Shown: positions 2,793 through 25,268 of the stretch, one piece after another
How positions within the stretch are numbered: the first letter of the stretch is position 1
Layout: each line of letters starts with the position of its first letter
DNA from: Polaromonas sp.
GTDB lineage: Bacteria > Pseudomonadota > Gammaproteobacteria > Burkholderiales > Burkholderiaceae_C
DNA: 64,000 nt
Direction of reading: 5' to 3'
Assembly: GCA_025352405.1 (NCBI GenBank)
Contig: JANXTM010000187.1
Location: 632-64,631, forward strand
Translations under genes and position numbers: made by a program
The notes under the pieces: model-generated
The model's database searches: none
Told to the model about the DNA's origin: nothing
What the model saw: the letters and a program-made list of their open reading frames with translations, nothing else

Positions 2793-2801
2793 AACCATGA
2801 G

Positions 2802-3656: not shown

Positions 3657-3671
3657 CGCGAAGTAAAAAGC

Positions 3672-7794: not shown

Positions 7795-9420
7795 ATGCCT
7801 GAAGAAATAAAACCCGGCCGCTCATCCGATCAGCTGTCCGCTTGGGCCCCTATCAGGCAACCAGTATTCCGCATGCTGTGGGGCACCTGGCTGGCGGCCA
7901 ACATCTGCATGTGGATGAGCGACGTCGCAGCAGCCTGGATGATGACCTCCATGACCACCACGCCGCTGTGGGTGGCGCTGGTGCAAACGTCGGCCACCTT
8001 GCCGGTGTTTTTACTCGGCTTGCCAAGCGGCGCCCTGGCCGACATCCTGGACCGCAGGCGCTACTTCATCCTGACGCAGTTCTGGATTGCGACGGTGGCC
8101 ACGCTGCTGTGCCTCACGGTGATTTCAGGCGTCATGACGCCGCCGTTGCTGCTGGCCCTGACCTTTGCCAACGGCGTAGGCCTGGCGATGCGCTGGCCGG
8201 TGTTTGCAGCCATCGTGCCCGAGCTGGTGCCGCGGGCGCAGTTGCCGGCAGCGCTGGCGCTTAACGGCATCGCCATGAATGCGTCACGCATCGTCGGCCC
8301 GCTCGTGGCCGGTGCGCTAATTGCCAGTGCCGGCACCGAATATGTGTTTGTGCTCAACGCCGTGTTGTCGGTTATTTCGGGCTTTGTCATCATGCGCTGG
8401 CGGCGCGTGCATGTGCCCAGCCCGCTGGGCCGCGAGCGGTTGCTCAGTGCAATGCGCGTGGGACTGCAGTTTGTACGCCAGTCCAGTCGGCTGCGTGCTG
8501 TGCTGCTGCGGGTGTCGCTGTTTTTTCTGCATTCCACCGCGTTACTGGCCCTGCTGCCCCTGGTGGCACGCAACCTGCACACCGGTGATGCAGGCACCTT
8601 CACGCTGCTGCTCGCCGCCATGGGGGTGGGTGCGATTGGCGCGGCCCTGTACCTGCCGCGCCTCAGGCAACTGATGCCGCGTGACACGCTGGTGCTGCGC
8701 TCAACCATACTTCAGTCCGTGTCTACCGCCGTCATGGCGCTGGCGCCCAACGCCTGGGTGGCGGTGCCCGCCATGCTGCTCAATGGCATGGCCTGGATTT
8801 GCTGCGCCAACTCGCTCAGCGTGTCGGCGCAACTTTCTTTGCCCGACTGGGTGCGCGCGCGCGGTATGTCGATGTACCAGATGGCCATCATGGGGGCCAG
8901 TGCGCTGGGCGCGGCGCTATGGGGTCAGATCGCCACGCTGACCAGCGTCTCCACGGGCCTGCTGGTAGCCGCTGCGAGCGGCACGGTCTGCATGCTGCTC
9001 GCACAAAGGCAGGTGGTGGACCTGAGCATTGAGGAAGACCTGACGCCCTCACGCGAGTTCAAGGCACCGGTGGCAGACGCCCCGCCCGGCGCAGGCCATG
9101 TGGTGGTGACTATTGACTACCTGATCGATCCGCTGCGCAGCCATGATTTTCACGCCGTGATGCAAGAAAGTCGCCGCAGCCGCCTGCGTCAGGGTGCGCT
9201 TGAATGGGCGCTGCTGCGCGACATCGGCACGCCGGGGCGGTATGTCGAGCAGATCATTGACGAGTCTTGGACCGAACATCTGCGCCGGTTTGACCGGGTG
9301 ACGGCCAGCGACGTGGCGCTGCGCGAACGCAAACTGGCCTTTCACATTGGAGACGTACCGCCGCAGGTGCAGCGCTGTGTGGTGGAAGGCGCTTTACGCC
9401 TTCAGGTTTTTTCGGCGTAG
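7795..9420 (+). CDS. MFS transporter (MFS_3/DUF894 type) with C-terminal soluble domain
   Basis: 12-TM hydrophobic pattern, [11 protein letters not shown] motif; 3' end overlaps the queC 3' end by 19 nt. Confidence 0.88.
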
Positions 9421-10100
9421 CGCTGATAACCCCGGGCGCGCAGCTCGCAGGCCGGGCAGGTGCCGCAGCCATAGCCCCACGCATGGCGGTGCAGTCGGTC
9501 GCCCAGGTAACAGGTGTGGGTGTGCTCCACAATTAGATCGACCAGCGGCTGACCCCCGAGCTGGTGCGCCATGCGCCAGGTGTCGGCCTTGTCGATCCAC
9601 ATCAGCGGGGTGTCGATTAAAAAGCGCTTGTCCATGCCGAGCGACAGCGCCAGTTGCATAGCCTTCATCGTGTCGTCGCGGCAATCAGGGTAGCCTGAAA
9701 AATCAGTCTCGCACACCCCCGTGACCAGCACTTGCAGATCGCGCCGGTAAGCCAGCGCCGCACTGAGGGTCAAGAACAGCAGGTTGCGGCCCGGCACAAA
9801 AGTGTTTGGCAGGCCCGAGCTTTCCATCTTGAAGGCCACGTCACGCGTGAGGGAGGTGTCGCTGACCTGGCCCAGTACGGCCAGGTCCAGCAAGTGGTCT
9901 TCACCAAGCTTGCTGGCCCACTGTGGAAACTTTTCTTTGATTTCGCGCAACACGTTGAGCCGAGCTTCAAGCTCCACGATGTGGCGCTGGCCGTAGTCAA
10001 AGGCGACGGTTTCGACGCGCTCATATTTGAAGAGCGCTTGGGCCAGACAAGTTGTGGAGTCCTGACCACCGGAAAATAAAACGAGGGCTGAGGTGTGCAT
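9402..10100 (-). CDS. queC: 7-cyano-7-deazaguanine synthase
   Basis: [19 protein letters not shown] and Zn site TCY...GCGTCPAC. Confidence 0.96.
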
Positions 10101-10119
10101 GCTTAAAAAGCTTGGGGGT

Positions 10120-11304
10120 TTACAACAGGCGACGCTTCGCCAGGCTCTTCATCAGCGCTGAAATACCAAACGTCCACGGTGCGGCCTTGTCAGACGTGGT
10201 GACGCGGTTAACCAGCGTGCCCAGCTGCGACGTCGACACGGCCACCACATCACCCACCACATGCGTGAAGCCCTGGCCGGGGCCGTGGCGGTCTTGCGTG
10301 GGCGCAAACATGGTGCCCAGAAACAGCATGAAACCATCGGGGTACTGGTGGTTGGCACCACACGCCTGCGCCACCAGGTCCAGCGGGTCGCGGCTGATTT
10401 TCTTCAATGATGAGCCGCCCGTCATGGTGAAGGGTGCGGGGGTTTCGGGCCCGGTCACGGTCATCGTCAAGTCGCTCTGGCGCACATCGTCGATGTTGAA
10501 GTGGTCGTCAAACAGGCGAATGAACGGCCCGATCGCGCACGATGCATTGTTGTCCTTAGCCTTACCCAACAGCAGCGCGCTGCGGCCTTCAAAGTCGCGC
10601 AGATTCACGTCGTTGCCCAGCGCAGCACCCACGGTTTCGCCGCGTGAATTAACCGCCAGCACGATCTCGGGCTCGGGGTTGTTCCAGACGCTTTGCGGGT
10701 GAATGCCGACCTCGGCACCGGTGCCCACCGCACTGAGGGGCTGGCTTTTTGTAAAAATTTCTGCGTCGGGGCCAATGCCGACTTCCAGGTACTGCGACCA
10801 CACGCCCTGTGCAATCAGCACCTCCTTGAGCCTGGCCGCCTCGGCCGAACCGGGCTGGATGCTGCTCAGGTTGTCGCCAATCACCTTGACCACCGCAGCC
10901 CGCACCGCTTCGGCCTTACTGGCATCACCGCGCGCCTGCTCCTCAATCACCCGCTCCAGCATCGAGGCCACAAAGGTCACCCCGGCGGCTTTGATGGCCT
11001 GCAAATCGCAGGGTGCCAACAGCCATGGCAGTTGCGGGTCACGCGCGTTTGAATTGGCCAGCACCTCTGCAGTACCCGCCAGGCGGGGCAGCGATGGTGC
11101 GGCCTGGCGTACCCGCTGGGCGACGTCGGGCAACTCTAGCAACTGGCTGCTGGTGGGTGCCACACCGGATAGATCAAACACACTGGTGGCGTCTATAAGC
11201 GCCAGGATAGGCCCGGTGCCGTCAACCCACACACGGCCGATCAGCAGAGCGTCGGGAGCATCAAGCGGCAAGGCGGTGGAAAGGCGCAGGTAATTTTTCA
11301 TCAT
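10120..11304 (-). CDS. xylX: Fumarylacetoacetate hydrolase family protein, XylX-like (2-keto-3-deoxy-pentonate dehydratase type)
   Basis: [65 protein letters not shown] match my recollection of Caulobacter XylX. Confidence 0.7.
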
Positions 11305-11423
11305 TCAGGGCTGGTGCCATAGGTGCAAAGCGCACCATATTACAGTGCCCTCATGCTTCTTCCGCGGTGTCTGCCGATCTGCCAGCAAGCTCGCGCTGCC
11401 AAACAGTACAGGCGGCCCCGGCT

Positions 11424-12380
11424 TCATGGGGCGCCATCAACCGCCAGCGCCGCATCCGGGAAGCGCTGCTCCCAGGCTTCTACCTCAGGCAGCCCCAGGC
11501 AGTCGCTGTATTCCTGGTTGCTCAACATGCGCGGGCGCATGGTGGCCGTGCTGCCGTCCTGCTTTAGGTGCTGCAGTGCCTCGCGCATGGCAAAGCCGAG
11601 CGCATTGCGCAAAAGTGCGGGGTAAATGGCCAGTGCAATCCCGTGAGTATGCAGATGGTCGGTGTGCAGCGCGGCCAGTGGACCACCGGCGTCGATGTTG
11701 ACCATGCACGGAATGCGCACGGCATCGGCAACGCGGCGTATGTCATCAAGGATGCCGGGGTGGCCCTTCAGCTCTACAAAAACCGCACCCGCACCGACGC
11801 GCTCAAAAGCCTGTGCGCGGCGTATCGCCTCGGCCACACCGCACGACGCAGCGCTGTCAGTACGCGCAATGACGAGAAAATCCGGGTCGTTGCGGGCCGC
11901 CACGGCGGCTGCAATTTTTGCAACTGCTGCATCAAACGCCAGCACTTCACGGGCACCTGGCAACTGCGCGCAGCGCTTGGGTGACAGCTGGTCTTCGATA
12001 TGAACGGCTGCAACGCCTGCTGCTTCAAACTCCTGCACCGTGCGCCGCACCGCCACGATGCCGCCGTAGCCGGTGTCAGCATCGCAAATCAGGGGAATGT
12101 CGATGCACGCGGCCACGTTGCGGGCGTGGTTGGCCATCAGTGACAAATCAATCAGGCCCACATCAGGCCGGCCCAGCAGACAGGCCGACACGCCGTTGCC
12201 CGTCATGTAAGCGGCTTCAAAGCCGGACTGTGCCACCATGCGCGCACCGTAACCGTCGTAAATGCCAGGTGCTATCAAGGCAGCGCGGCTACGCTGCGCC
12301 AGACGCTGGTGCAATGCCTGTCGCAGGCGGCTCGCGCGGTTGACGGCCATGGGCTGGTGGGGGATGTCTTGGACACTCAT
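11424..12380 (-). CDS. Isocitrate lyase/PEP mutase superfamily C-C lyase (dimethylmalate/methylisocitrate lyase-like)
   Basis: YMTG, DADTGYG, HIEDQ, KRC catalytic loop, ARTD; ATGA overlap with the upstream gene. Confidence 0.88.
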   Translation of the reverse strand: MSVQDIPHQPMAVNRASRLRQALHQRLAQRSRAALIAPGIYDGYGARMVAQSGFEAAYMTGNGVSACLLGRPDVGLIDLSLMANHARNVAACIDIPLICDADTGYGGIVAVRRTVQEFEAAGVAAVHIEDQLSPKRCAQLPGAREVLAFDAAVAKIAAAVAARNDPDFLVIARTDSAASCGVAEAIRRAQAFERVGAGAVFVELKGHPGILDDIRRVADAVRIPCMVNIDAGGPLAALHTDHLHTHGIALAIYPALLRNALGFAMREALQHLKQDGSTATMRPRMLSNQEYSDCLGLPEVEAWEQRFPDAALAVDGAP

Positions 12381-12898
12381 GCGGACAATTCCCAAGTGGG
12401 GTGTTTGGCTAAAAAGGGGATCAGGCCGCCCTCACGCAGAATGGCGCGTATGGCGGCTGGCATGGCAGGCAAAGGGCGCGAAATGGCACGTCCGGCCACC
12501 GTCAACGCCTGGCCACCCAGGTCCAGCAACACCGCGTCGCCGTCGGCGATGCCGCTGGTGTCGCACTCCAGCGCCGGCAAGCCGTTGTTGATGGCGTTGC
12601 GAAAAAACTGCCGCCCAAAAGACGGTGCCACAACCGCCGCCACGCCCATGCGGCGAAGGATATGCACGGCCTGTTCGCGGGACGAGTTGATGCCGAAGTG
12701 CTTGCCCGCCACAATCACACCGCCGGTCGCAAAGCGCGTCGCAAAACCGGGTGAAACGGCTTCAAAGGCCTGCGCTGCGATGTAGCTTTCGTCCTTGCCG
12801 GGCAGATACTTGCCGGAGCAGCACAGGTCGGTGTTGACGTCGTCGCCGAGCAGGTACACCCGGCCTTTGATGCTGTCGTTTGAAGAAGAATCAAACAT
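12377..12898 (-). CDS. Aconitase-family hydratase small subunit (LeuD/HacB/DmdB-like)
   Basis: DDVNTD, NFG-like HFGINSSREQA, FGRQFFRNAINNGLP. Confidence 0.9.
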   Translation of the reverse strand: MFDSSSNDSIKGRVYLLGDDVNTDLCCSGKYLPGKDESYIAAQAFEAVSPGFATRFATGGVIVAGKHFGINSSREQAVHILRRMGVAAVVAPSFGRQFFRNAINNGLPALECDTSGIADGDAVLLDLGGQALTVAGRAISRPLPAMPAAIRAILREGGLIPFLAKHPTWELSA

Positions 12899-14177
12899 GT
12901 GAGGCCTCCCATTGCCCACCCGCCACGGTGCGCGGGTCGGTGACAAAGCCTGTCAGGGCCGATGCCGCCACCGTGGCGGCAGAGCCCAGCCATATCTCGG
13001 CATCGTGGTTGCCGAGCCGGCCCTTGAAGTTGCGGTTCGCGCTGGAGATCACGACTTCACGGTCACCCGGAATCAGGTGGTTGGTGATACCCACACAGGT
13101 ACCGCAGCCTGCCGCTTCAACCGATGCGCCGGCTTCGATCAGTATTTCGAACAGGCCTTCACGCAGGGCCGCCAGGTAAATCTGGCGTGAGGCCGGGGTG
13201 ACGATCATGCGCACGCCCTTTGCCAGGCGCCGCCCCTTCAAAATCGCAGCCGCCTGGCGGATGTCATCAAGCCGCCCGTTGGTACAAGTGCCAATCAATG
13301 CAAAGTTGATCTTTTGCCCAACCACTTCCGAGGCGGCCACGATGTCGTCAACGGCATGGCGGCGCGCCACCTGGGGCGTGAGCGCCGAGGCGTCGATTTC
13401 AACGCGGTCGGCATACACGGCGTCCGCATCGGCCTTTACCGGCTGCGGCGCTTTGGCACCGTGCGCGGCCAGCCAGGCAAAGGTTTTGTCGTCGGCCTCC
13501 AGCAGCGCAGCCTTGGCACCGAGTTCAGCAGCATGGTTGGCCAGCGTCATACGGTCGTCGATTTCCATCGCGCTGACGGCCGGGCCAACATATTCAATCG
13601 CCCGGTAGTTCAGGCCTTCGGCGCCAAAACGGCCCAGCATGTAAAGCGTGAGGTCCTTGGCCCATACGCCGGGTTGCAGGCGGCCATTGAGCTGCACCCG
13701 TACCGATTCGGGCACGCGCAACCAGACCTTGCCGGTGGACATGACTGCTGTCACATCAGTTCCCTCAATGCCGGTGCCAAAAGCGTTGAACGCGCCGTAG
13801 GTGGTGGAATGGGTGTCGGTGCCAACAATCAGGTCGCCACAAGTCAGGTGGCCACCCTCCGGCAGTACTTGATGGCAAATCCCGTCACCAATGTCGTAAA
13901 GCACGCTGCCGTGCTCGTCGGCAAAACGCCGCATGGCGCTGTGTGTTTGCGCGGCCTCGACATTGGGCGGGGGCGAGTAGTGGTCAAGTACCCAGGCGGT
14001 CTTGCTGGCAAAGGGCAGGCGTGGCACGCCCATCTTGTCGACCATGCGTATGGTGTTGGGCGCTCTGGCGTCATGCACCATGGCGAAGTCGACCTTTGCA
14101 ATGACGATGTCCCCGGCCTTGACGTGGTCCAGACCGGCATGCTTGGCCAGGATTTTTTCTGCAATCGTTGCGTTCAT
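12891..14177 (-). CDS. Aconitase-family hydratase large subunit (LeuC/HacA/DmdA-like, short type)
   Basis: LDH, GICHQ, DTH, 4Fe-4S ligands GTCTNGR and GCGTC, SSANRNFKGR; GGAG RBS upstream of ATG 14177. Confidence 0.92.
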   Translation of the reverse strand: MNATIAEKILAKHAGLDHVKAGDIVIAKVDFAMVHDARAPNTIRMVDKMGVPRLPFASKTAWVLDHYSPPPNVEAAQTHSAMRRFADEHGSVLYDIGDGICHQVLPEGGHLTCGDLIVGTDTHSTTYGAFNAFGTGIEGTDVTAVMSTGKVWLRVPESVRVQLNGRLQPGVWAKDLTLYMLGRFGAEGLNYRAIEYVGPAVSAMEIDDRMTLANHAAELGAKAALLEADDKTFAWLAAHGAKAPQPVKADADAVYADRVEIDASALTPQVARRHAVDDIVAASEVVGQKINFALIGTCTNGRLDDIRQAAAILKGRRLAKGVRMIVTPASRQIYLAALREGLFEILIEAGASVEAAGCGTCVGITNHLIPGDREVVISSANRNFKGRLGNHDAEIWLGSAATVAASALTGFVTDPRTVAGGQWEASHV

Positions 14178-14192
14178 GCTTGACTCCATGGC

Positions 14193-15185
14193 TTACTCGC
14201 CCTTGATACCGGCTTTGCGCACCAGCACACCCCATTTGTCGCTCTCCTTGCGCATGAAGCGAATGGTTTCATCAGGCGTTGAGGGTGTCGGGTCCAGACC
14301 CAGCTTGCGCAGCTGCGCCACCACACCAGGGTCATTGAGGGTTGTCACGATGGCGTTGTTAAGCCGTTGCACCATCTCCGGCGGCGTGCGCTGGGGTGCG
14401 GTAAAGGCATACCAGTTGCTTGCCTCAAAACCGGGGTAACCCGACTCTGCGATGGTGGGCACTTGCGGCAGGGCCTCAAGCCGCTTGCTGCCTGTAGTGG
14501 CAATGGCCCGCAACTTTCCGGCCTGGATAAACTGCAGTGCATCGGTCGGGCTCGAAAAAATAGACTGTAGTACGCCGCCGAGCAGGTCATTCATGGCGGG
14601 CGCACCGCCGCGGTAAGCCACATGCTGGTTGTTCAGGCCTGCAGCTGACTTTAAAAGTTCGCCCGCCAGGTGGCCGCTGCTGCCAATACCCGATGACCCG
14701 AAGGACAGGCTCGAATTCGCCGCCCTGCCCTGGCGAATGTAATCGTCCAGCGTGCGGATACTGCTCGCGGTGTTAACGACCAGCACGTTGGTGAACACCA
14801 CCGCCATCGACAAGCCGGCCATGTCCGTCACGGGGTTGTAGCTGAGTTTATTGAGGTGCTGGTTGACCGCCAGCGAACCAATGGTGCCCAGCATGATAGT
14901 GTAGCCGTCGGCTGGTGCCTTGACCAAAAAATCCGACGCAATATTGCCGCCCGCACCAGGCTTGTTGTCAATCACCACGCTCTGCTTCAGCGCATCGGCC
15001 ATGCGGGGAGCCAGAATGCGCGCCACCGTATCAGAGCTGCCGCCGGCGGCAAAACCGACGACGAGTTTGACTGGGCGATTGGGATAAGGGTCAGTGTCTG
15101 CGGCGTATGCAGATACCGACGCGGCCATCACCGCCAAAGAAAATGCGGCGCATACCGCTGCTGCCATTCGGCTTGATCTGATCAT
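14193..15185 (-). CDS. Tripartite tricarboxylate transporter substrate-binding protein (Bug/TctC)
   Basis: YPNRPVKLVVGFAAGG, NKPGAGG, HVAYRGGAPA, PTIAESG motifs; signal peptide; AGGAGA RBS. Confidence 0.93.
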   Translation of the reverse strand: MIRSSRMAAAVCAAFSLAVMAASVSAYAADTDPYPNRPVKLVVGFAAGGSSDTVARILAPRMADALKQSVVIDNKPGAGGNIASDFLVKAPADGYTIMLGTIGSLAVNQHLNKLSYNPVTDMAGLSMAVVFTNVLVVNTASSIRTLDDYIRQGRAANSSLSFGSSGIGSSGHLAGELLKSAAGLNNQHVAYRGGAPAMNDLLGGVLQSIFSSPTDALQFIQAGKLRAIATTGSKRLEALPQVPTIAESGYPGFEASNWYAFTAPQRTPPEMVQRLNNAIVTTLNDPGVVAQLRKLGLDPTPSTPDETIRFMRKESDKWGVLVRKAGIKGE

Positions 15186-15242
15186 GTCTTTGTCTCCTGC
15201 TGTTTTAAGGGCCGCATGCGTGCGCGCGCCGTCACAACTTCC

Positions 15243-15258
15243 TGCAATGCACGTGCCA
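15243..15258 (-). promoter_or_regulatory. Sigma54 -24/-12 promoter for the Bug-LeuC-LeuD-lyase operon
   Basis: Minus strand TGGCAC-GTGCA-TTGCA, an exact match to TGGCAC-N5-TTGCW, 58 nt upstream of the Bug start and facing away from a sigma54 activator gene. Confidence 0.9.
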
Positions 15259-15342
15259 AGCGAACCATCAAAACACGCCTGCGTTTGGAGTGTTGATTTA
15301 ATTAGCTATTTTTGTGTATAGCTCAACTGTAGTGGAGCTATA

Positions 15343-15365
15343 GTTCATCAAACATTTCACAAACG
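15343..15365. promoter_or_regulatory. Candidate PrpR upstream activating sequence
   Basis: GTTCATCAAAC and CATTTCACAAACG resemble the Salmonella PrpR site CGTTTCATGAAACG; 85-107 bp upstream of the -24 element. Confidence 0.4.
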
Positions 15366-15383
15366 AAATAACCTGTTTCAATA

Positions 15384-17357
15384 GTGAACCATATGGTTAC
15401 ACCATTTCATTCCTCGGACATGGCTAAAGTCGCTTCTACCTTCCCTGACTCACCGGCTGGCCCCATCATCTGGGCCGTGAGCGGACACCGACTGATCGAC
15501 ACCTTTCGCGCGGTCAGCCCGGAGTTTGCCGCACGCGCGCGCATCAGGGTCGCCCATCTGGCGTTTGACGACGCGGTGGCCCACCTGCTCGACCAGTCGG
15601 CACAGCAAACCTGTGACGTGGTGTTGGCCTCGGGCTCCAACGGTGCCTATCTGCGTAGCCATCTGGCGGTTCCTGTCGTGATGGTCAAGGTCGGGGGCTA
15701 CGACCTGATGGCTGCGTTGTGCAATGCCAAAACCATCTCCAGCCGCATAGCCGTGGTGCTGCACCGCGCCGTGTCCCCTGAATTACGCCGATTCGCGGGG
15801 CTTTTTGGCATCGGGTTGGCGCTTCGCTCCTACGAAACCACCGACGATGTCGCTTACCGTATTCAGGAACTCGCCGATTCGGGCATTGAGGTGGTGGTGG
15901 GTGCGGGCCTGGTGGTGAGCATGGCGCAACAGGCGGGACTGGCAGGCGTTTTTCTTTATTCCACCGACTCGGTACGCGACGCCATTGAAGATGCCATCAC
16001 CATTGCTGTGGCCCAACGAAACGAAAAATCCCGACATGCACAACTCGATTCCGTGGTGCGGCACCTTAGCGACGGGGTGGTGGCCATCGACATGGCCGGG
16101 CACATCACCACCATCAATCCAGCGGCTGCCCGCATGGTGGGGCGCTCGGGCGAAGGCGCACTGGGCGCGTCGCTACAACGGGTATTTGTAGGGCTGCAGC
16201 CAGGTGCCGTACTGACCCAGGGCACAACAGAGCTGGGTCGCGTCGATGAGCTGCTGGGTCGCTCGCTGGTGGTGGATTGTGTACCACTGCACAACGCAGG
16301 CCAACAAACAGGTGCTGTCTTCACACTCCACGCGCCTGGTCCGATGGAAAACGCTGTCAGCCGACTGCGCGCGCACAGCCACCGGCGTTCACGCTCGGCC
16401 CGCTACACACTGGACCAGCTCGTCGCGATATCGCCGTCAATGCGTGAGCTGGTCAGGCGCTGCGAGATATTGGCCAAAAACAGCGATGCCACGGTGCTGA
16501 TCCAGGGGGAAAGCGGCTCGGGCAAGGAAGTTGTGGCACAGGGTATTCACGAGGCAAGCCGAAGGCGGCAGCATCCGTTCGTTGCGACCAATTGCGGCGC
16601 GTTTCCACAAAACCTGCTGGAGACCGAGCTTTTTGGCTACGAAGAAGGTGCATTTACCGGCGCACGGCGGCACGGCAAGGCGGGCTTGTTTGAGGCGGCA
16701 AATGGCGGCACACTGTTTCTGGACGAAGTGGGCGAAATGCCCCTGCTGCTGCAAACCCGCTTGCTGCGCGTGCTGCAAGAAAAAGAAATCACCCGCGTGG
16801 GCGGCATAGACACCATCCCCGTCGATGTGCGCATCGTGGCAGCCACCAACCGCAACTTGTCTGCCATGGTGGGGCTGGGCAGTTTTCGGGAAGATCTTTT
16901 CTACCGCATTCACATTTTGCAGGTAGTCGTCCCACCGCTGCGGGACCGGCCGCAGGATGTGGAGGCACTGGCAGCCAAACTCATACCGGCAGCACTTGAG
17001 CGCGCCGGCGTATCTCATCTCGCCGTGCAGGTCCTGCGCAATGCCATGCCGGCGTTGCTGGGCCACGCCTGGCCAGGCAACGTACGCGAGCTTGAAAGCG
17101 TGGCGGAGCGTATCGCCATGGCCTGCCTGATGGCCGCTGGTACACCTTCCAGCCATGACATGATTGCCCTGCTCGGCCATGGGGTGGTGAAGAGTGAGAC
17201 CAATGAAACATCCCAAGCCGATTCACTGCCGGAAATGCGCCGTCAGCACGAGGCGCAACGTGTGCAGGCGGCTTTGCGCGCTGCAGGCGGCGACCGTGAC
17301 CTTGCAGCGCGCACGCTGGGCATCAGCCGCACCACGCTGTGGCGCAAGTTACGCTGA
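15384..17357 (+). CDS. prpR: PrpR-like sigma54-dependent activator (PrpR_N-PAS-AAA+-HTH)
   Basis: PrpR N-terminal region (SGSNGAYLR), GESGSGKE, GAFTGA, LFLDEVGE, C-terminal LGISRTTLWRKL. Confidence 0.85.
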   Translation: MNHMVTPFHSSDMAKVASTFPDSPAGPIIWAVSGHRLIDTFRAVSPEFAARARIRVAHLAFDDAVAHLLDQSAQQTCDVVLASGSNGAYLRSHLAVPVVMVKVGGYDLMAALCNAKTISSRIAVVLHRAVSPELRRFAGLFGIGLALRSYETTDDVAYRIQELADSGIEVVVGAGLVVSMAQQAGLAGVFLYSTDSVRDAIEDAITIAVAQRNEKSRHAQLDSVVRHLSDGVVAIDMAGHITTINPAAARMVGRSGEGALGASLQRVFVGLQPGAVLTQGTTELGRVDELLGRSLVVDCVPLHNAGQQTGAVFTLHAPGPMENAVSRLRAHSHRRSRSARYTLDQLVAISPSMRELVRRCEILAKNSDATVLIQGESGSGKEVVAQGIHEASRRRQHPFVATNCGAFPQNLLETELFGYEEGAFTGARRHGKAGLFEAANGGTLFLDEVGEMPLLLQTRLLRVLQEKEITRVGGIDTIPVDVRIVAATNRNLSAMVGLGSFREDLFYRIHILQVVVPPLRDRPQDVEALAAKLIPAALERAGVSHLAVQVLRNAMPALLGHAWPGNVRELESVAERIAMACLMAAGTPSSHDMIALLGHGVVKSETNETSQADSLPEMRRQHEAQRVQAALRAAGGDRDLAARTLGISRTTLWRKLR

Positions 17358-18235: not shown

Positions 18236-18976
18236 TTATTCATTCTGGCACCATCGACCTGAATCCGGGCATACGCTGGCTCTTGTGCCGTCCCGCCAGA
18301 CCTGCTCATCATCCAGTAATAACGCGGTTGTGGGGTCGATGTCAAAGGCTATCCCGAGTACATGCCCAACATGGGCATTCTCGATAGGAAGCTCCCAGGT
18401 CAGGAATACCTGGGAGCAATCCCGGTCGGGTGGAAAGTCAGCCACGTTAAAGCCGCTGCTGCTCCTGTCAATGACGGCATGCGGCTGTCCGGTATCGAAC
18501 ATCACAGCCGTACCCGTGGTCAAGGGGATTCGATGGCCGGTAGATGGGAAGTGCAAGTCCAAACCCCGGTCTTCACTTAAAAAAAGATTGCAAAAAGACA
18601 TACCGCCATACTGCGCGCCATCGTGGTGGTATTTGGCGCCACGGCAGGCCATCAGGGCTACATCGCAGGCGGTCAGCGAAGCCGGCAGGCCCAGCGTACC
18701 CGTCCAGTCAGACATGGCCTGCACGCATTGCCGGTACTCTGGCCAGCGCATGCGCGCACGTGCCAAAGGCAAAGCCTCGACCTCACCAGGTGCCAGTCTC
18801 AGGCGCTGCACTATGTCCCGCTCCCAATCAGCCGACAGCCTTGCTGGGGGTGCAGGAACATTGACCGTGCCCACCAGCACAACGCTGCTTACACTTCGGC
18901 TGCGAATGGCCTCGCCACTCCAGAAATAGGAGACAAGGGGGTCTTGCACAGGATGCGCTGGCGGGGGGATGATCAT
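18236..18976 (-). CDS. Hypothetical protein with HxD...H metal triad (2OG-Fe(II) oxygenase/cupin-like)
   Basis: YHHDG ... FCNLFL ... GTAVMFDTGQPHAV pattern; 246-aa ORF that fills the gap. Confidence 0.6.
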   Translation of the reverse strand: MIIPPPAHPVQDPLVSYFWSGEAIRSRSVSSVVLVGTVNVPAPPARLSADWERDIVQRLRLAPGEVEALPLARARMRWPEYRQCVQAMSDWTGTLGLPASLTACDVALMACRGAKYHHDGAQYGGMSFCNLFLSEDRGLDLHFPSTGHRIPLTTGTAVMFDTGQPHAVIDRSSSGFNVADFPPDRDCSQVFLTWELPIENAHVGHVLGIAFDIDPTTALLLDDEQVWRDGTRASVCPDSGRWCQNE

Positions 18977-19053
18977 CTGGCTGTCATGCGCGAAGTTTTG
19001 AGAGATTTATATTTAATCAGACAAACTTCAATCTTGATGTTTTGTCTGCCCTA

Positions 19054-19899
19054 TTAAATCCAGGTCTCAATCACACGGCTGTCGTCGCGCAAGCCCAGAC
19101 CGGCGTCTGCCGCCCGGCAAAAACGCTCGTGCGCAATAGCCAGCAGAGGAAGTTGGGCGCTACAGCCAGCGCCTGCCGCCGCTACCAACCCGCTGTCTTT
19201 CACGAAGATGTTGATGGCGCTGGTGACTTCGACATCGCTGCCTGCAAGCATGCGGGGACCGCGGTCAGTAAGCATCCAGGAACCGGCTGCGCCTTTTTCT
19301 ACAAGGTCCAAAACAACAGACGGATTGAGGCCAAGCAAGCGCGCCAAATTGAGGGCTTCGGCCGCTGCAGCGATATGCACGGCGCAAAGGTGTTGGTTCA
19401 CTACTTTGATACTTTGTCCATCGCCGAGTCGTTCGCCCGTTGTTTTGACGTTACCCATGGTCTGCAGCAACGGTGTAGCCAAAGCCACATCCGCCGCAGC
19501 GCCCGCTGCAAAAATCACCAATGCGCCTGTCTTCGCACGGGCTACGCCACCTGTGACAGGCGCGTCTACGACACGAGCGCCAGCCCGCTGCAAGGCTTCC
19601 CCTTGCGCCCGTATGGACTGCGGACCAACTGTGGACATGATGATCCACAGTTGGCCCGCAGCGGCCCTGCCTACCTGGCTGACGAGCCCGGCCAATTGAT
19701 CTGGCGTGGCGACCATAACCACCACCACTTCTGCACGTGGCGCGGCAGCAAAATCATTGCAAGCTTCCAGTCCCTTCGACTTTGCATTGGCAATGATCGC
19801 GTCCGACACATCGACACCCGTGACTGCGTGATGAGCCGCTTGAATCCGCAAAGCCATCGGCAACCCAATAGCCCCAATGCCGATAAATGTAATGTTCAT
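19054..19899 (-). CDS. NAD(P)-dependent beta-hydroxyacid dehydrogenase, LtnD/YgbJ-like
   Basis: GIGAIG Rossmann motif, DAPVTGG, KVVNQ (catalytic Lys), SAINIFVKD. Confidence 0.85.
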   Translation of the reverse strand: MNITFIGIGAIGLPMALRIQAAHHAVTGVDVSDAIIANAKSKGLEACNDFAAAPRAEVVVVMVATPDQLAGLVSQVGRAAAGQLWIIMSTVGPQSIRAQGEALQRAGARVVDAPVTGGVARAKTGALVIFAAGAAADVALATPLLQTMGNVKTTGERLGDGQSIKVVNQHLCAVHIAAAAEALNLARLLGLNPSVVLDLVEKGAAGSWMLTDRGPRMLAGSDVEVTSAINIFVKDSGLVAAAGAGCSAQLPLLAIAHERFCRAADAGLGLRDDSRVIETWI

Positions 19900-20088
19900 G
19901 ATTTTCTTTTATAAAAAAATTTGGACCGATGAAAGAGTGATTGACTGTGCGTATCCGGACCACAAAATAGGCAGCGAACCCTTCGGTTAATTTGGAGATG
20001 CGTCACCTTGTAAGTGCATCGGGTGGTTGGTTGAAATTGAATGCGTCACTACCGGTCAATTCAGTTGTTTTGCGTCGCCGCCACAGAC

Positions 20089-21093
20089 TCACACTGCGAC
20101 CCAGGTTTTAATTTTTTGAGCCATCATTTCTGTTGAAATGCCGTAGCGGTCGTGCAGCGTCGGCAGCGCACCCGCGTCGAGAAAAGCGTCTGGCAAGCCA
20201 ATCTGACGAAATGCTGTAGCGACGCCTGAACGCATCAACAAACCGGCTATAGCCTCACCCAAACCGCCGATTACCGAATGATTCTCTGCCACCACGACCA
20301 GTCTTCCCAGCCGCCGGACCTCGGCCAAGATGGTCGCTTCATCAAGCGGCTTGATCGTGGGGACGTGCAGCACTGCGACATCGATGCCATCGGCCTTCAG
20401 TTGCTCGGCAACTTCCAGCGCACGCATGGTCATGAAGCCACTGGCAATCACCAGAACCTCATTGCCGTCGCGTATCAGCTTGGCTTTGCCGAGCTCGAAC
20501 TTGTAGTTGTACTCGTCCAGCACCAGTGGCACGTTGCCGCGCGGCAGTCGCATGTAGACAGGGCCAACATGGTCAGCCATTTGCGGCACAGCTTGCTCAA
20601 TCTCGAGCGCGTCGCATGGGTCAATGATGGTCATGCCAGGAATGCAGCGCATCATGGCCAGGTCCTCCGTCGCCTGGTGACTCGGCCCATAGCCTGTCGT
20701 CAATCCAGGCAGCGCGCAACAGATCTTGACGTTCAGGTTCTCTTCAGCAATGACCTGGTGCACAAAGTCGTAGGCGCGGCGGGTACCAAACACGGCGTAG
20801 GTCGTTGCGAACGGAATAAAGCCTTCCTTGGCCATGCCACCGGCTGCCGCCATCAGCAGCTGCTCGGCCATACCCATCTGAAAGAAGCGCTCCGGGTATT
20901 CCTTGCCGAACAGGTGCAAGTCGGTGTATTTGGCAAGGTCAGCCGTCATGCCGACAATCTCCGGACGATTGCGCGCCAGCTCAACCAGGGCTTTGCCAAA
21001 CGGCGCCGCCGTGAAGCGCTGGCCCTCGCTGGCGATCGAGGCGATCATGGCTGAGGTGGTCAGCCGTGGTTTCTTTTCGGTAGTGGCGTTCAT
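20089..21093 (-). CDS. Split transketolase, C-terminal (pyrimidine-binding) subunit
   Basis: MGMAEQ, FGTRRAYD, GPSHQATED, PVYMRLPRG, HVPTIKPLD; TAATG coupling with the upstream gene. Confidence 0.92.
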   Translation of the reverse strand: MNATTEKKPRLTTSAMIASIASEGQRFTAAPFGKALVELARNRPEIVGMTADLAKYTDLHLFGKEYPERFFQMGMAEQLLMAAAGGMAKEGFIPFATTYAVFGTRRAYDFVHQVIAEENLNVKICCALPGLTTGYGPSHQATEDLAMMRCIPGMTIIDPCDALEIEQAVPQMADHVGPVYMRLPRGNVPLVLDEYNYKFELGKAKLIRDGNEVLVIASGFMTMRALEVAEQLKADGIDVAVLHVPTIKPLDEATILAEVRRLGRLVVVAENHSVIGGLGEAIAGLLMRSGVATAFRQIGLPDAFLDAGALPTLHDRYGISTEMMAQKIKTWVAV

Positions 21094-21932
21094 TAAACGA
21101 CTCCTTCGGTTTGCATGCTGTCGATATGGGCGATGGCTTGCTGCCATTCCGGCGGATCGACACGGATAAAGTGGTTCTTGTCGCGGGTTTCGAGGAACGG
21201 GACGCCCCGACCCATCAAAGTGTCAAAGAGGATTACCCGCGGCTTGTCTTCGGTCAACGCCCGTGCTGCATCGAAGGCAGCAATGACGGCTGGCAGGTCA
21301 TTGCCGTCGACGCGCTGTACATGCCAGCCGAACGCCGCCCATTTATCGGCCAGTGGCTCAAAGCCCATGATTTTCCCGGACGGGCCGTCGGCCTGCTGGT
21401 TGTTGATGTCAATCAGGCAGATCAGGTTAGCTAGCCGGTGGTGGGCGGCACCCATAGCGGCCTCCCAGGTCGAGCCTTCATCCAGCTCACCGTCGGACAT
21501 TGAGTTGTAAACAAAGGCCGAATTCTTCTTCAGCCGCAGACCCAGCGCGACCCCAACCGCGATAGACAAGCCTTGTCCCAACGACCCCCCCGACATTTCC
21601 ATGCCGGGCGTGTAGGTCGCCATTCCTGACATCGGCAAGCGGCTGTCGTCGCTGCCGTAGGTTTCGAGTTCTTCCTCCGGCAAGATCTTGGCTTCTATCA
21701 ACGCTGCGTACAAAGCGATTGCGTAGTGACCGTGCGACAGCAGGAAACGGTCGCGCCCCTCCCACTTGGGATCTTCGGGCCGGTAATTTAACGCATGCCG
21801 GTAAGCCACCGCCAGCACGTCAGCCCATCCGAGTGCCTGCCCAATGTAGCCCTGCCCTTGAACTTCCCCCATACGCAGGGCGTAGCGGCGAATGCGATAA
21901 GCGCTTTCTTGAAGCGTCGATAAATCAGACAT
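21093..21932 (-). CDS. Split transketolase, N-terminal (ThDP-binding) subunit
   Basis: RDRFLLSHGHYA, GGSLGQG, SDGELDEG...DINN ThDP motif; GGAG RBS before ATG 21932. Confidence 0.92.
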   Translation of the reverse strand: MSDLSTLQESAYRIRRYALRMGEVQGQGYIGQALGWADVLAVAYRHALNYRPEDPKWEGRDRFLLSHGHYAIALYAALIEAKILPEEELETYGSDDSRLPMSGMATYTPGMEMSGGSLGQGLSIAVGVALGLRLKKNSAFVYNSMSDGELDEGSTWEAAMGAAHHRLANLICLIDINNQQADGPSGKIMGFEPLADKWAAFGWHVQRVDGNDLPAVIAAFDAARALTEDKPRVILFDTLMGRGVPFLETRDKNHFIRVDPPEWQQAIAHIDSMQTEGVV

Positions 21933-22086
21933 ATATCTCCTTGGAAGATCGAATAAGGCAGGTAATAAGGCAGGTAACAGTGCAAGGCATCCTGAGAGGT
22001 GACGTGGCAATTCCACACATCGCATTGTCAAAGGGCTGCCCTGCAATTTCGGGTCGATTTAGCGCTCGGTGGATGGGGTGCATTTG

Positions 22087-23967
22087 TCAGAGGAACCCGA
22101 TGGATATCCATGGGACCGCGGCGACGATAACGGTTCCGATGAACAGCGCGATCATGTAGCCCACAATGGGCTTCATGCCCTCATTCGGGTGGATACGGCT
22201 GATGGCGCAGGCCGCGTAGTAGCCCACCCCAAATGGCGGCGCAAACAGGCCAATACCCATCGACAGAGTGACGACCATGGCGTAATGCACTTCATGAATC
22301 CCAACCTGGCGGGCAATCGGAAACAGGAGAGGGCCCAGCAGCACGATGGCAGGAATACCCTCCAGTACGGAGCCCAGAATGATGAAAGCCACGACCGACA
22401 CGGCCATGAAGGTGACTGCACCACCTGGCAACGCCTTCATCGCATCGGCCAGCGCGGTCGAGAAGCCGGACTGCGTCAGCGCCCAAGCCATGGCGGTGGC
22501 TGCACCGATGATGAACAAAATGGCACCTGAAAGTGACGCGGTACTAACCAGCATCGGATAGACCCGCTTCCAGTCAAATTGCCGGTACACGAGCAGTCCA
22601 GCAATCACGGCGTAAACGATGCCGATGGTGGACACCTCGGTCGCCGTGGCAACACCTTCGACCACCGCTGCGCGAATGACAACGGGAAGCGCTAGTGCCG
22701 GAATTGAGATCAGAAGCGACTTGCCGATCTCGCGGCCCGTGGCGCGTCTTACGCCCGTGAGGTCCTCACCCCGGTAGCGCCACCACACAAGCGCGGCCAG
22801 AGTGAGCCCCACCACAACGCCAGGCAACAAACCGCCGGTGAACAAAGCTGCAATCGACACGCCAGTGGCGGACCCAATCGTGATCAGTACAAGTGACGGT
22901 GGAATCGTCTCGGTCTGCGCACCAGTAGCGGACAGCAAAGCCACCAGATCGCCTGGCTTGGCACCTCGCTCGCGCATTTCCGGGAACAGTGCCGGTGCCA
23001 CCGCCGCCATATCGGCTGCTTTTGAGCCTGAGATGCCCGACACCAAGTACATCGCACCAATCAGCACATACGACAGTCCGCCGCGCACGTGCCCCAAGAG
23101 GTTCGCCAGGAAATTAACCATGGCGCGCGCAATGCCGGTCATTTCAATCAACAGGCCGAGCAAGACAAACAGGGGAACCGCGAGCAAGATGAGATGGCTC
23201 ATGCCTTCGTCCATCCGGCCGACGATGACCATTGTTGGCGTGCTGGTCGTCAGTGCAATGTAACCAAAGGTCGCGAGTCCGAACGAGAACGCAATGGGCA
23301 AACCCAGCAGCACCATGACGCCAACGCCGAGCACAAAAAAGACGAACAGGTTCCAGTTGCCAAGCGGCTTCAGTAGCGGGCCGACCAGCGCCATCGCCCC
23401 AACGACAAGGGCAACCAGGCCCACGGCCAAGACGACATCCTTCAGTCGCCCGATGCGAAAGATCTGGATGATGCCCACGAGCAACATCAGCCCAAGGCCG
23501 ATGGGAAGTGCGGCGGCACGCCAGGCGTTGGGTATACCCATCGCCGGTGTCGTGACAAACACTTCGTCTGCCGCAAACTCGTAGGCAGGGTGTACGACAA
23601 ACGCCAGGAAGGCAACGCCAGCTGCGATCGCAACCAGATCGAGCAAGGCCCGCTGCCTCGGTTCGAGATTGCCAACCATCGCCGTCATGCGCATATGCTC
23701 GCCGCGCTGGAAAGCAACGATCGACCCCAACATCGCCAGCCAAAGGAACAGGATCGACGCCAGCTCGTCAGACCATCCGAGGGGTTGGTGAAAGACGTAA
23801 CGGCTTATCACGCCCATCAGCAGTACAACGACCTCAGCCAGCACCAGCAGCGCGGCCGGTATTTCAACCAGCGTCGCAAGCGCCTTGTTCAGCGTCTCAA
23901 GCCAGGCGATCGGCTCGCGCCGGCCCGTCTGAACTGCATTTTCATGCTCATCGATAGGGAAATTCAT
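22087..23967 (-). CDS. dctM: TRAP transporter fused DctQ-DctM permease
   Basis: N-terminal 4-TM DctQ (WSDELAS, GEHMR) fused to DctM (AVPLF, SGSKAAD, IPPS, APPFG). Confidence 0.92.
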   Translation of the reverse strand: MNFPIDEHENAVQTGRREPIAWLETLNKALATLVEIPAALLVLAEVVVLLMGVISRYVFHQPLGWSDELASILFLWLAMLGSIVAFQRGEHMRMTAMVGNLEPRQRALLDLVAIAAGVAFLAFVVHPAYEFAADEVFVTTPAMGIPNAWRAAALPIGLGLMLLVGIIQIFRIGRLKDVVLAVGLVALVVGAMALVGPLLKPLGNWNLFVFFVLGVGVMVLLGLPIAFSFGLATFGYIALTTSTPTMVIVGRMDEGMSHLILLAVPLFVLLGLLIEMTGIARAMVNFLANLLGHVRGGLSYVLIGAMYLVSGISGSKAADMAAVAPALFPEMRERGAKPGDLVALLSATGAQTETIPPSLVLITIGSATGVSIAALFTGGLLPGVVVGLTLAALVWWRYRGEDLTGVRRATGREIGKSLLISIPALALPVVIRAAVVEGVATATEVSTIGIVYAVIAGLLVYRQFDWKRVYPMLVSTASLSGAILFIIGAATAMAWALTQSGFSTALADAMKALPGGAVTFMAVSVVAFIILGSVLEGIPAIVLLGPLLFPIARQVGIHEVHYAMVVTLSMGIGLFAPPFGVGYYAACAISRIHPNEGMKPIVGYMIALFIGTVIVAAVPWISIGFL

Positions 23968-24046
23968 AATTTATTTTCGCCAAAGAGCCACGTACAGCCG
24001 CCACAAGAGTCCGCGCGGCTGCTCACCATCACGTTCACTCAAAGGT

Positions 24047-24079
24047 TCACCTCGCGGACCGGCACGCAGAGCGAGGTGA
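24047..24079. terminator. Hairpin between dctP and dctQM (attenuator/stability element)
   Basis: TCACCTCGC-N15-GCGAGGTGA perfect 9-bp stem just after the dctP stop. Confidence 0.4.
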
Positions 24080-24087
24080 CTTTGCAG

Positions 24088-25098
24088 TTAGCCGAGCTTG
24101 CCGGAGACTTTTTCCAGAAGATCCCAGGGCATTGCGCCGTACTTGGTCTTCCACTCGCCATAAAAGCCTGTGCTTATCAACTTTTTGCGGAAATCTTCTT
24201 GCTGAACATCGACGAAATTGATGCCCTTGGCTTTGAGGTCTGCAACCAGGCTGGTATTGAGCCGGGCCACATCGGCGCGCTGATCGGTGGCAGACTTGTC
24301 AAGCTCTCGCTTGATAATCTGTTGGACGTCCGCAGGCAGCTTTTCAAATGCGCGTTTGTTTCCAAGCACCCAGTACCCATCCCAGACATGACCAGTAAGG
24401 CTACAGCTTTTTTGAACCTCATAGAGCCGGGCGGTTGCGATGATGGCCAGGGGGTTTTCCTGGCCCTCCACCACCTTCGTCTGCAAAGCTGTGTACACCT
24501 CATTAAAGTTGATGGTAGCCGGAGCCGCCTCAAGCGCCTTGAACATCGATGTCAGCGATGGCGCAGGCGGCACTCGCAGCTTGAAGCCCTTGAGGTCGGC
24601 TGCAGTTTTGATGTCGCGTGAAGACGACGTGATGTGGCGAAAACCGTTGTCCCAGATCTTGGAGACGGTAAAGATAGATGTTTTTGCGATTTCGGCACGG
24701 ATGTGGTTGCCCAGATCACCGTCCATCGCTTTCCACACGTCGTCGTAGTTCTTGAAGGCAAAACCAACGCTGGTGATGCCCGAGATCGGCACGAAGGTCG
24801 ACAAGATCAGCGAGGACAGGTTGAAAAAATCGACCGAACCATTGCGCACCTGCGACAACAGGTCTGTGTCGTTACCGAGTTGGTTGGCCGGAAAGAGCTT
24901 GATGTTGACCCGGCCTGAGCTGGCCTCACGGATGCGGTCGTGTGCTTCCTTGGCGCGCAGATTAACCGGATGCGTCGGGTCTTGTCCGGTGGCGTACTTG
25001 AGTTCAAACTCGGCGGCGTCGGCGCGGTGCGAGATGATCGAGAAAAGCGGCAGCGTTGCGGATTGCGCCAGCAAGGCCCGACGAGTCAATTTTGTCAT
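24088..25098 (-). CDS. dctP: TRAP solute-binding protein with Tat-type leader
   Basis: TRRALL leader, FPANQLG, NGFRH, LRVP, EVYTALQTKVVEGQENP. Confidence 0.93.
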   Translation of the reverse strand: MTKLTRRALLAQSATLPLFSIISHRADAAEFELKYATGQDPTHPVNLRAKEAHDRIREASSGRVNIKLFPANQLGNDTDLLSQVRNGSVDFFNLSSLILSTFVPISGITSVGFAFKNYDDVWKAMDGDLGNHIRAEIAKTSIFTVSKIWDNGFRHITSSSRDIKTAADLKGFKLRVPPAPSLTSMFKALEAAPATINFNEVYTALQTKVVEGQENPLAIIATARLYEVQKSCSLTGHVWDGYWVLGNKRAFEKLPADVQQIIKRELDKSATDQRADVARLNTSLVADLKAKGINFVDVQQEDFRKKLISTGFYGEWKTKYGAMPWDLLEKVSGKLG

Positions 25099-25268
25099 GA
25101 TGTGTTTGTCTCCGGTGGTTCGGCATGGTCAATTGGCCGTGATTTCGCGGTACTTGCCAATCTTTTCAGCGAGCCACCGGGCATGAGGCGCTTCTGTGCC
25201 CTGTGGCGCTTCGATTTCAAAAACTCGTAAAAGTAATGTAAAAGTGATGGAGAAGAATTCCCGCTTTG

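Follow-up and report, generated by a model that had tools for sequence, protein, structure and literature searches.

A Polaromonas operon with a sigma54 promoter, a PrpR-family paralogue and a Bug–hydro-lyase–lyase gene order: a probable CoA-ester-free module for a small branched organic acid

A stretch of 64 kb of Polaromonas sp. DNA (contig JANXTM010000187.1 of assembly GCA_025352405.1, positions 632 to 64,631 of the forward strand; hereafter the window) contained, at 11424-17357, four minus-strand genes and one divergent plus-strand regulator gene. These five genes probably constitute a self-contained, inducible catabolic module that is free of coenzyme A (CoA) esters and acts on a small hydroxy- or cis-unsaturated branched di- or tricarboxylic acid. 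The minus-strand genes encode a Bug-type periplasmic binding protein, the two subunits of a LeuCD-like hydro-lyase and a C–C lyase of the isocitrate lyase (ICL)/phosphoenolpyruvate (PEP)-mutase superfamily, and the regulator is related to PrpR. The features of the locus, in window coordinates, were as follows:

15420-17357, plus strand: PrpR-family sigma54 enhancer-binding protein (PrpR_N, PAS, AAA+ with GAFTGA, and HTH_8)
15375-15389, minus strand: regulator box 1, distal, a putative upstream activating site, GTTCACTATTGAAAC (TTTCA-N4-TGAAA with one mismatch)
15354-15369, minus strand: putative regulator box 2, proximal, ATTTCGTTTGTGAAAT (TTTCA-N4-TGAAA with one mismatch)
15317-15342, no strand assigned: inverted repeat with 12-nt arms, TATAGCTCAACT/AGTGGAGCTATA (92% complementary, 2-nt loop), between boxes and promoter
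15243-15258, minus strand: sigma54 -24/-12 promoter, TGGCACGTGCATTGCA
14193-15185, minus strand: Bug/TctC-family periplasmic solute-binding protein with signal peptide, operon gene 1 (PF03401, 239 bits)
12891-14189, minus strand: large subunit of an aconitase-family [4Fe-4S] hydro-lyase of the archaeal isopropylmalate isomerase (IPMI)/HacA type (NF001614, 505 bits)
12377-12898, minus strand: hydro-lyase small subunit, LeuD/DmdB family, with the loop YLPGK (TIGR02087, 141 bits; loop alignment)
11424-12380, minus strand: C–C lyase of the ICL/PEP-mutase superfamily, a distinct subfamily with SPKRCAQ plus N67, D235 and R263 (PF13714, PF00463)

The sigma54 promoter was perfect. TGGCACGTGCATTGCA was the only exact match to TGGCAC-N5-TTGCW in the window (0.34 expected), and it was located on the correct strand of the 198-nt spacer between the divergent genes, with 57 nt separating it from the Bug start codon downstream. 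This uniqueness and placement bore out the promoter named in the original prediction, a model's reading of the same DNA. The centres of the two boxes were 124 nt (box 1) and 103 nt (box 2) upstream of the -24 element and 21 nt apart. With one mismatch allowed, TTTCA-N4-TGAAA occurred five times in the window compared with 1.48 expected, and two of the five were in this spacer. The canonical prpR-prpB spacer of Ralstonia solanacearum contained TTTCCAATTTGAAA and TTTCAGACCTGAAA, likewise 21 nt apart, at -93 and -72, and that of E. coli contained GTTTCAT...ATGAAAC repeats together with TGGCACACCCCTTGCT. Since the Ralstonia and E. coli spacers share this box type, the PrpR-like boxes proposed earlier are considered real and of the family type; both the motif and the 21-nt spacing match those of Ralstonia.

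The promoter was then compared between cassettes with and without the regulator. The regulator-linked set comprised 10 loci from a genome scan and one from Bordetella bronchialis, each with an orthologous regulator. In every one, a -24/-12 element preceded the Bug start by 70-180 nt, and a palindrome lay 71-126 nt upstream of this element, frequently accompanied by a second one at a distance of 21-22 nt. In contrast, the sigma54 motif was found in none of the 25 regulator-less loci where the Bug gene precedes LeuC. The promoter was present only where the regulator was present (12 of 12 loci examined with the regulator vs 0 of 25 without it), a comparison that we regard as decisive.

Several further elements of the spacer were noted. 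The inverted repeat at 15317-15342 occupies the position where a site for IHF or a second regulator would be expected; it was absent from the spacers of the two closest relatives (L001 and L002). A perfect 12-bp palindrome (AACCATATGGTT, 15387-15398) overlaps the distal box and closely precedes the ATG at 15420 where the regulator probably starts. A sigma70-like site on the plus strand (15356-15385) overlaps the boxes, and autoregulation would fit, although this is only suggestive; a search for a clear sigma70 promoter of the regulator gave nothing above chance. Outside the spacer, a second candidate sigma54 site between the lyase gene and the next gene downstream (TGGTGCGCTTTGCA) was rejected on inspection because its GG-to-GC spacing is 8 nt, not 10. 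Another perfect palindrome of the PrpR-box type (TTTCAATGTTGAAA, 61464-61477), in a spacer of convergent or unrelated genes, had no sigma54 motif nearby and may represent chance or a hairpin.

The start and stop codons of the operon were adjacent or overlapping. The Bug gene, with AGGAGA as its ribosome-binding site, ended in TAA with the LeuC ATG 3 nt downstream; the LeuD ATG (12898), preceded by GGGAGG, gave an 8-nt overlap with the end of LeuC; and the lyase ATG (12380) overlapped the LeuD stop as ATGA. The suggested translational coupling of the hydratase subunits and the lyase was confirmed by these junctions, which also indicate that the mechanically called open reading frame (ORF) starts at 12946, 12395 and 15384 are too long. 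The predicted genes therefore stand, with the lyase starting at 12380 instead of 12395 and LeuD at 12898 instead of 12946. For the regulator, the mechanical GTG start at 15384 falls within regulator box 1, so that ATG 15420 is the most likely start. Homologues of prpC, prpD, acnD, prpF, leuA and leuB were not detected in the 64 kb window (tblastn, E<=1e-3; window rather than genome scope), in agreement with the earlier report that prpC, prpD, acnD, prpF and leuB are missing. Neither these genes nor a CoA ligase or transferase gene adjoined the cassette in the window or in any relative.

The regulator contained PrpR_N (PF06506, 149 bits), a sigma54 activator domain (PF00158, 227 bits), a Fis-type HTH, the Walker A motif GESGSGKE and, by alignment, GAFTGA. 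It scored 597 bits with the PrpR equivalog model TIGR02329 (cut-off 499) and failed the enterobacterial model PRK15424 (549 vs a cut-off of 703). Because it passes the equivalog cut-off, annotation pipelines will call it PrpR. Within the clade of cassette-linked regulators the identity was 60-78%, compared with 45-46% to the PrpRs of Ralstonia and E. coli, and the PrpR_N sensor domain was 41% identical to that of canonical PrpRs; a search for sensor-domain homologues, limited by its word index, gave three matches. The canonical Ralstonia PrpR adjoins prpB-prpC-acnD-prpF, whereas no cassette-linked orthologue adjoined genes of the 2-methylcitrate cycle. The separation of the clades, in the sensor domain as in the whole protein, agrees with the claim that the protein is a PrpR paralogue, and the comparison supports a clade of cassette-linked regulators that are PrpR-family paralogues and probably not propionate regulators.

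A further PrpR paralogue, 51% identical, was encoded on plasmid pBB1 of Cupriavidus necator N-1 (L085, 6741-10914), divergent from an operon of a Bug gene and a zinc-type alcohol dehydrogenase/quinone oxidoreductase gene. That operon had its own sigma54 promoter (TGGCATGGCCATTGCG) and a palindrome (GTTTCAAAGTGAAAC) with a spacer of 3 nt, not 4 nt. The pBB1 paralogue suggests that PrpR-like sensors for non-propionate Bug operons are a wider phenomenon. Conversely, the regulator was absent from approximately two thirds of the cassettes and hence is optional. The original prediction lacked these points: that the regulator is optional, that a second cassette architecture exists, and that PrpR paralogues control other Bug operons.

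The hydro-lyase large subunit passed NF001614 (505 vs a cut-off of 385) and failed the leuC/LEU2 equivalogs (TIGR00170, 216 vs 560; TIGR02083, 401 vs 611). It contained the motifs GTCTNGR, GCGTC, GTDTHS and SANRNFKGR, with three cluster cysteines, and was 29% identical to E. coli LeuC. Its closest solved relative was the isopropylmalate/citramalate isomerase of M. jannaschii (4nqy, 5e-110). The small subunit passed TIGR02087 (141 vs a cut-off of 109) and contained NSSRE with the catalytic Ser. Its loop YLPGK, within NTDxxCSGKYLPGKD, was essentially invariant across both cassette architectures (approximately 70 relatives). The corresponding loop is YLRT in homoaconitase, YLVY in IPMI and YNLT in P. 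horikoshii LeuD; YLPGK offers neither an Arg for a distal carboxylate nor a bulky hydrophobic residue. The failed equivalog models and the lack of leuA and leuB in the window argue against a biosynthetic isopropylmalate isomerase LeuCD. The bacterial maleate hydratase HbzIJ is a comparable two-subunit [4Fe-4S] hydro-lyase. According to a passage of PMC8307300, which cites Drevland 2007, the M. jannaschii isomerase also has maleate hydratase activity.

The Bug protein contained, by inspection, the signal peptide MIRSSRMAAAVCAAFSLAVMAASVSAYA. It was similar to AdpC, BugE, TphC, BugD and Bug27 with E values of approximately 1e-54 to 3e-59. As these solved relatives are about equally distant, its ligand cannot be derived by similarity.

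The lyase scored far below the cut-offs of the PrpB models (TIGR02317, 215 bits vs 354; NF008455, 193 vs 353). Its best matches in the PDB were methylisocitrate lyases (3e-45), whereas PA4872 was a weak match (1.7e-25). Residues were mapped by alignment onto E. coli PrpB, and invariance was judged in 14 diverse family members; the roles of the residues (metal, methyl pocket, carboxylate site) are presumably those described in the structure papers on PrpB, ICL and dimethylmalate lyase (DML). The metal ligands D78, D105, D107 and E134, the catalytic K140-R141-C142, R178 and E208 were retained, as was the PrpB-type methyl pocket (F206, I257 and P259). Because this pocket is kept, the lyase probably releases pyruvate. 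Other positions differed from E. coli PrpB: the Gly-His of KRCGH was A143-Q144 (H125 to Q144), G47 was N67, T212 was D235, R241 was N264, directly preceded by an invariant Arg (R263), and R270 was not conserved. The retained and the changed states were invariant in 14 of 14 family members.

The DML comparison used A. niger 3fa3 as the reference, not the E. barkeri sequences. Where the lyase family has N67, A143-Q144, D235 and R263, 3fa3 has Ala, Gly-His, Val and Leu, so that TGA, KRCGH, N-x-V and a hydrophobic residue after Pro correspond to TGN, KRCAQ, N-x-D and R263. In an exhaustive search of 1.8 billion representatives the lyase family made up essentially a single 50%-identity cluster, with the next relatives at <=45% identity. 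Among 127 full-length neighbours, the full set N67, Q144, D235 and R263 was found in the family's own representative only. The co-varying triad N67, D/N235 and R263 was present in 12, and 76 had the classical His without any triad residue. Representatives with the DML pattern (TGA/KRCGH/NV) formed a separate group at approximately 40% identity. Judged by its predicted active site, the lyase is neither a methylisocitrate lyase nor a dimethylmalate lyase, and its putative pocket for the C3 substituent is polar.

The genome scan, with one genome per species, returned 80 loci. The order Bug-LeuC-LeuD-lyase was found at approximately 35 of them, spread over three families of the Burkholderiales, with carriers in Comamonadaceae (including Polaromonas and Limnohabitans), Alcaligenaceae and Polynucleobacter; Achromobacter and Bordetella were also among the carriers within the Burkholderiales. 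A second architecture, LeuC-LeuD-cycloisomerase-Bug-lyase, occurred at at least 26 loci of uncultured Burkholderiales (among L034-L078, e.g. L046, 3846-8831). It shared the small-subunit loop and the lyase signature, and its extra gene was muconate-cycloisomerase-like, of the enolase superfamily (mostly 71-92% identity). The cycloisomerase suggests an upstream lactone, epimer or dehydration step into the same core chemistry. Locus L086 additionally contained MmgE/PrpD-family genes and a carboxyltransferase gene. Identity was 85-98% for the large subunit, compared with 66-85% for Bug, 46-83% for the small subunit and 57-83% for the lyase; a lookup of the exact LeuC sequence of the window returned no record.

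The cassette was found in varied surroundings: between holA and proA in Limnohabitans sp. 15K, 3' of cytochrome c genes in Polaromonas vacuolata, and as a five-gene module amid unrelated genes in Bordetella bronchialis. Compared with the closest relative (Polaromonas sp. RGN.1, L001), the module in the window had the opposite orientation between the same flanks, MFS_3 and queC (region compared, 7795-17357 of the window), which suggests insertion or inversion as one unit. The module behaves as a mobile, self-contained unit. Directly 3' of the lyase gene is an FAH-family gene (10120-11304, minus strand; 394 aa) that had a weak FAA-hydrolase C-terminal domain and no NCBIfam match. It was rejected as a fifth operon member because it was not cassette-adjacent in the closest relative or at any other locus. 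The window matched metagenomes from rock, sediment and glaciers, and an ice metatranscriptome contained, at low depth, contigs with 90-99% identity to the cassette genes, which is weak evidence of in-situ expression.

From the observed gene content, promoter, boxes, coupling, conservation, regulator–promoter link and active-site inventory, we infer the direction of the chemistry, its products, the co-inducer and the substrate. An organic-acid co-inducer would be sensed via PrpR_N/PAS by the activator, which would bind at the two TTTCR-N4-TGAAA palindromes and remodel sigma54 RNA polymerase at 15243-15258, giving an mRNA for four coupled proteins. The Bug protein would capture the acid in the periplasm and hand it to a TctAB membrane unit encoded elsewhere; an orphan Bug gene without adjacent tctAB is usual in Burkholderiales. 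The LeuCD-like [4Fe-4S] enzyme would then hydrate a double bond, or act as an isomerase that shifts a hydroxyl, to give a 2-hydroxy acid with a malate backbone. Finally the lyase, with Mg2+ and Cys142 as the general acid, would cleave C2-C3 to a 2-oxo acid, probably pyruvate, and a short carboxylic acid. Since Bug-LeuC-LeuD-lyase is strictly conserved in unrelated contexts, the logic of uptake, hydro-lyase and C–C lyase without CoA is well supported, and the CoA-independent uptake-hydrate-cleave route put forward in the original prediction thereby appears sound. The substrate is most likely citraconate- or citramalate-like, although the C3 pocket of the lyase appears polar.

Several points weigh against this interpretation. 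The residues N67, Q144, D235 and R263 fit neither a simple alkyl substituent nor a classical carboxylate site, as far as the alignment tells. Neither tctA nor tctB was among the approximately 50 ORFs scanned in the window. Most cassettes lack the regulator, and the Limnohabitans cassette is located between holA and proA, where it may be constitutive or serve a housekeeping role. A search for an intrinsic terminator 3' of the lyase gave nothing above chance; the lack of a terminator or promoter between the lyase and FAH-family genes leaves the operon without a defined 3' end. The metatranscriptome contigs come from related strains and may include DNA. In the literature searched, no published characterisation of any cassette member was found.

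Four known or conceivable chemistries were weighed against these data. In an equivalent of DmdAB plus Dml, imported 2,3-dimethylmaleate would be hydrated to (2R,3S)-2,3-dimethylmalate and cleaved to pyruvate and propionate, with the regulator sensing dimethylmalate, which by our own chemical reasoning is 2-methylcitrate, the PrpR ligand, minus one carboxyl group. Both enzyme families and their order agree with this, the small subunit is a member of the TIGR02087 'LeuD/DmdB' family, the lyase keeps the methyl pocket, and JGI names some lyase homologues '2,3-dimethylmalate lyase' and one LeuC homologue dmdA. The catalytic site of 3fa3, however, has KRCGH, Ala 67, Val 235 and Leu 263 in place of the invariant A143-Q144, N67, D235 and R263, and sequences with the DML pattern belong to the other group at approximately 40% identity. 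Nicotinate-pathway genes were not nearby, and no source of dimethylmaleate in glacier or freshwater environments is known to us. The analogy to DmdAB/Dml drawn in the original prediction holds for family and logic only; with a differing active site, the chemistry itself was not borne out and is quite unlikely. A branch of the 2-methylcitrate cycle, or a scavenging route, would import exogenous 2-methylcitrate, 2-methyl-cis-aconitate or 2-methylisocitrate, isomerise it and cleave it to pyruvate and succinate, with the regulator still sensing 2-methylcitrate. The TIGR02329 score (597 vs 499) and the PrpR-type boxes are consistent with this, as are the methylisocitrate lyases that head the PDB matches; tricarboxylates are typical TctC-type ligands, and two central metabolites as products would suit a module without further enzymes. 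The lyase score (215 bits vs the PrpB cut-off of 354) and the replaced residues argue against it: the distal-carboxylate ligands T212 (now D235), R241 (N264, with Arg one earlier) and R270 (not conserved) are lost, and H125 is Q144. In addition, Pro-Gly occupies the position in the small-subunit loop that is Arg-Thr in the tricarboxylate-specific homoaconitase, and the sensor domain is only 41% identical to that of canonical PrpRs. To our knowledge, aconitase-family enzymes cannot dehydrate the (2S,3S)-2-methylcitrate made by PrpC, hence the use of PrpD or of AcnD plus PrpF. This alternative route from 2-methylcitrate to methylisocitrate, also raised earlier, is disfavoured and we consider it very unlikely.

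Smaller acids were a third possibility: maleate could be converted via D-malate to glyoxylate and acetate, or citraconate via (R)-citramalate to pyruvate and acetate, both starting from ring-cleavage or photo-oxidation products of dissolved organic matter. We know of no bacterial ICL-family D-malate or citramalate lyase, and a small non-polar substituent would leave the invariant polar residues N67, Q144, D235 and R263 unexplained, although D235 and R263 might form a salt bridge and so close the pocket. Retention of the methyl pocket points to pyruvate and thereby to citraconate; a glyoxylate product would not need this pocket. A small substituent is suggested by the Pro-Gly specificity loop, the hosts belong to the Burkholderiales of fresh water and glaciers, and the closest solved hydro-lyase is a citramalate isomerase to which a passage of PMC8307300 ascribes maleate hydratase activity. 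Taken as a whole, this proposal is unlikely, though not implausible. NCBI and UniRef call some lyase homologues 'oxaloacetate decarboxylase', and the polar pocket would suit a last enzyme that is an oxaloacetate decarboxylase or hydrolase, with the LeuCD-like enzyme dehydrating a tartrate-like dihydroxy acid to oxaloacetate. The PA4872-type decarboxylase lacks the catalytic loop, whose Lys-Arg-Cys is invariant in the lyase family, and oxaloacetate hydrolases have Ser at the position of P259. With PA4872 itself a weak match (1.7e-25 vs 3e-45 for methylisocitrate lyases), such chemistry is highly improbable. Otherwise, the acid is one that is absent from the usual lists. Within the reading of a CoA-free module for a branched acid, we tentatively propose, as a possibility that we hold with some doubt, that the lyase and its LeuCD-like partner represent a new substrate class in the ICL/PEP-mutase and aconitase superfamilies and that the PrpR paralogue is tuned to a new ligand. 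The branched acid would then have a polar non-carboxylate or a differently placed C3 substituent, read by N67, Q144, D235 and R263 as a co-varying set.

Other gene clusters were present in the window. The cluster at 18236-27095 contained a TRAP transporter (DctP, 24088-25098; fused DctQM, 22087-23967), a LysR regulator (26139-27095), a split transketolase (21093-22046 and 20089-21147), a 3-hydroxyisobutyrate-dehydrogenase-like gene (19054-19899) and a gene for a 246-aa protein (18236-18976). On C. necator pBB1, too, a split transketolase (L085, 13174-15065) was located close to the PrpR paralogue. The region 40821-50139 encoded a five-gene ABC transporter of the Dpp/Opp type, followed by a D-serine-dehydratase-like gene, an RpiR/SIS regulator and an amidohydrolase, and may be a cluster for the utilisation of D-amino acids or peptides. 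Genes for assembly of the cobalamin lower ligand (a CobT-like phosphoribosyltransferase, CobS and a CobC-like histidine phosphatase) were located at 1749-4223, with a threonine dehydratase gene upstream of them (33-1535).

If the proposed reading is correct, a previously unknown CoA-free catabolic route is common in freshwater and cryosphere Burkholderiales (Limnohabitans, Polynucleobacter and Polaromonas), and the regulator belongs to a wider family of PrpR-like sensors that serve Bug-linked operons. As the carriers dominate freshwater plankton and glacier communities, the cassette would name a carbon source and a route missed by annotation. Pipelines assign its genes to leucine biosynthesis, methylisocitrate or dimethylmalate lyase, oxaloacetate decarboxylase and PrpR, labels that are all probably wrong in detail, so the case illustrates how the PrpR equivalog model over-calls paralogues. 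Parts of each kind are already known, orphan Bug-linked clusters are numerous in Burkholderiales, and the mechanism implied is not unexpected; the novelty lies in how the parts are combined, in the subfamilies of the lyase and the hydro-lyase and in the ligand of the regulator. The small size of the module (a binding protein, a hydro-lyase, a lyase, a regulator and a defined promoter/operator) makes it an unusually tractable target for deorphanisation, and it could possibly provide a ligand-inducible sigma54 switch or biosensor for a small organic acid.

The locus can be compared with four known systems. With the Bug/TctC proteins of tripartite tricarboxylate transporters, the binding protein shares the PF03401 fold family, the signal peptide and the orphan arrangement without adjoining tctAB; it is roughly equidistant from the binders of adipate, glutamate, terephthalate, aspartate and quinolinate (AdpC, BugE, TphC, BugD and Bug27). 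The hydro-lyase is of the same archaeal two-subunit [4Fe-4S] type as M. jannaschii MJ0499/MJ1277 (4nqy, 4kp1 and 3vba), with all cluster ligands and catalytic motifs, but it differs by its YLPGK loop, the preceding NTDxxCSGK and a catabolic context instead of one of amino acid biosynthesis. DmdAB plus Dml, known from the nicotinate fermentation of Eubacterium barkeri and from A. niger 3fa3, share with it the CoA-independent hydrate-then-cleave logic, the enzyme families and the methyl pocket. Unlike that system, the operon of the window has a lyase with a different pocket (approximately 40% identity), occurs in aerobic Burkholderiales without nicotinate genes, and combines Bug uptake with sigma54/PrpR-type control. 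The canonical prp locus (prpR-prpBCDE in Salmonella and E. coli, prpR-prpB-prpC-acnD-prpF in Ralstonia) likewise has a divergent PrpR-family activator with PrpR_N, AAA+ and HTH_8 domains (and PAS in betaproteobacteria), a -24/-12 promoter preceded by a pair of TTTCA-N4-TGAAA boxes at 21-nt spacing, and an ICL/PEP-mutase-family lyase in the operon. In contrast to it, the operon described here lacks prpC, prpD, acnD, prpF and prpE, is controlled by a regulator only 45% identical (41% in the sensor domain), encodes a lyase that fails the PrpB model and lacks the succinate-binding residues, opens with a Bug gene and includes a LeuCD-type hydro-lyase.

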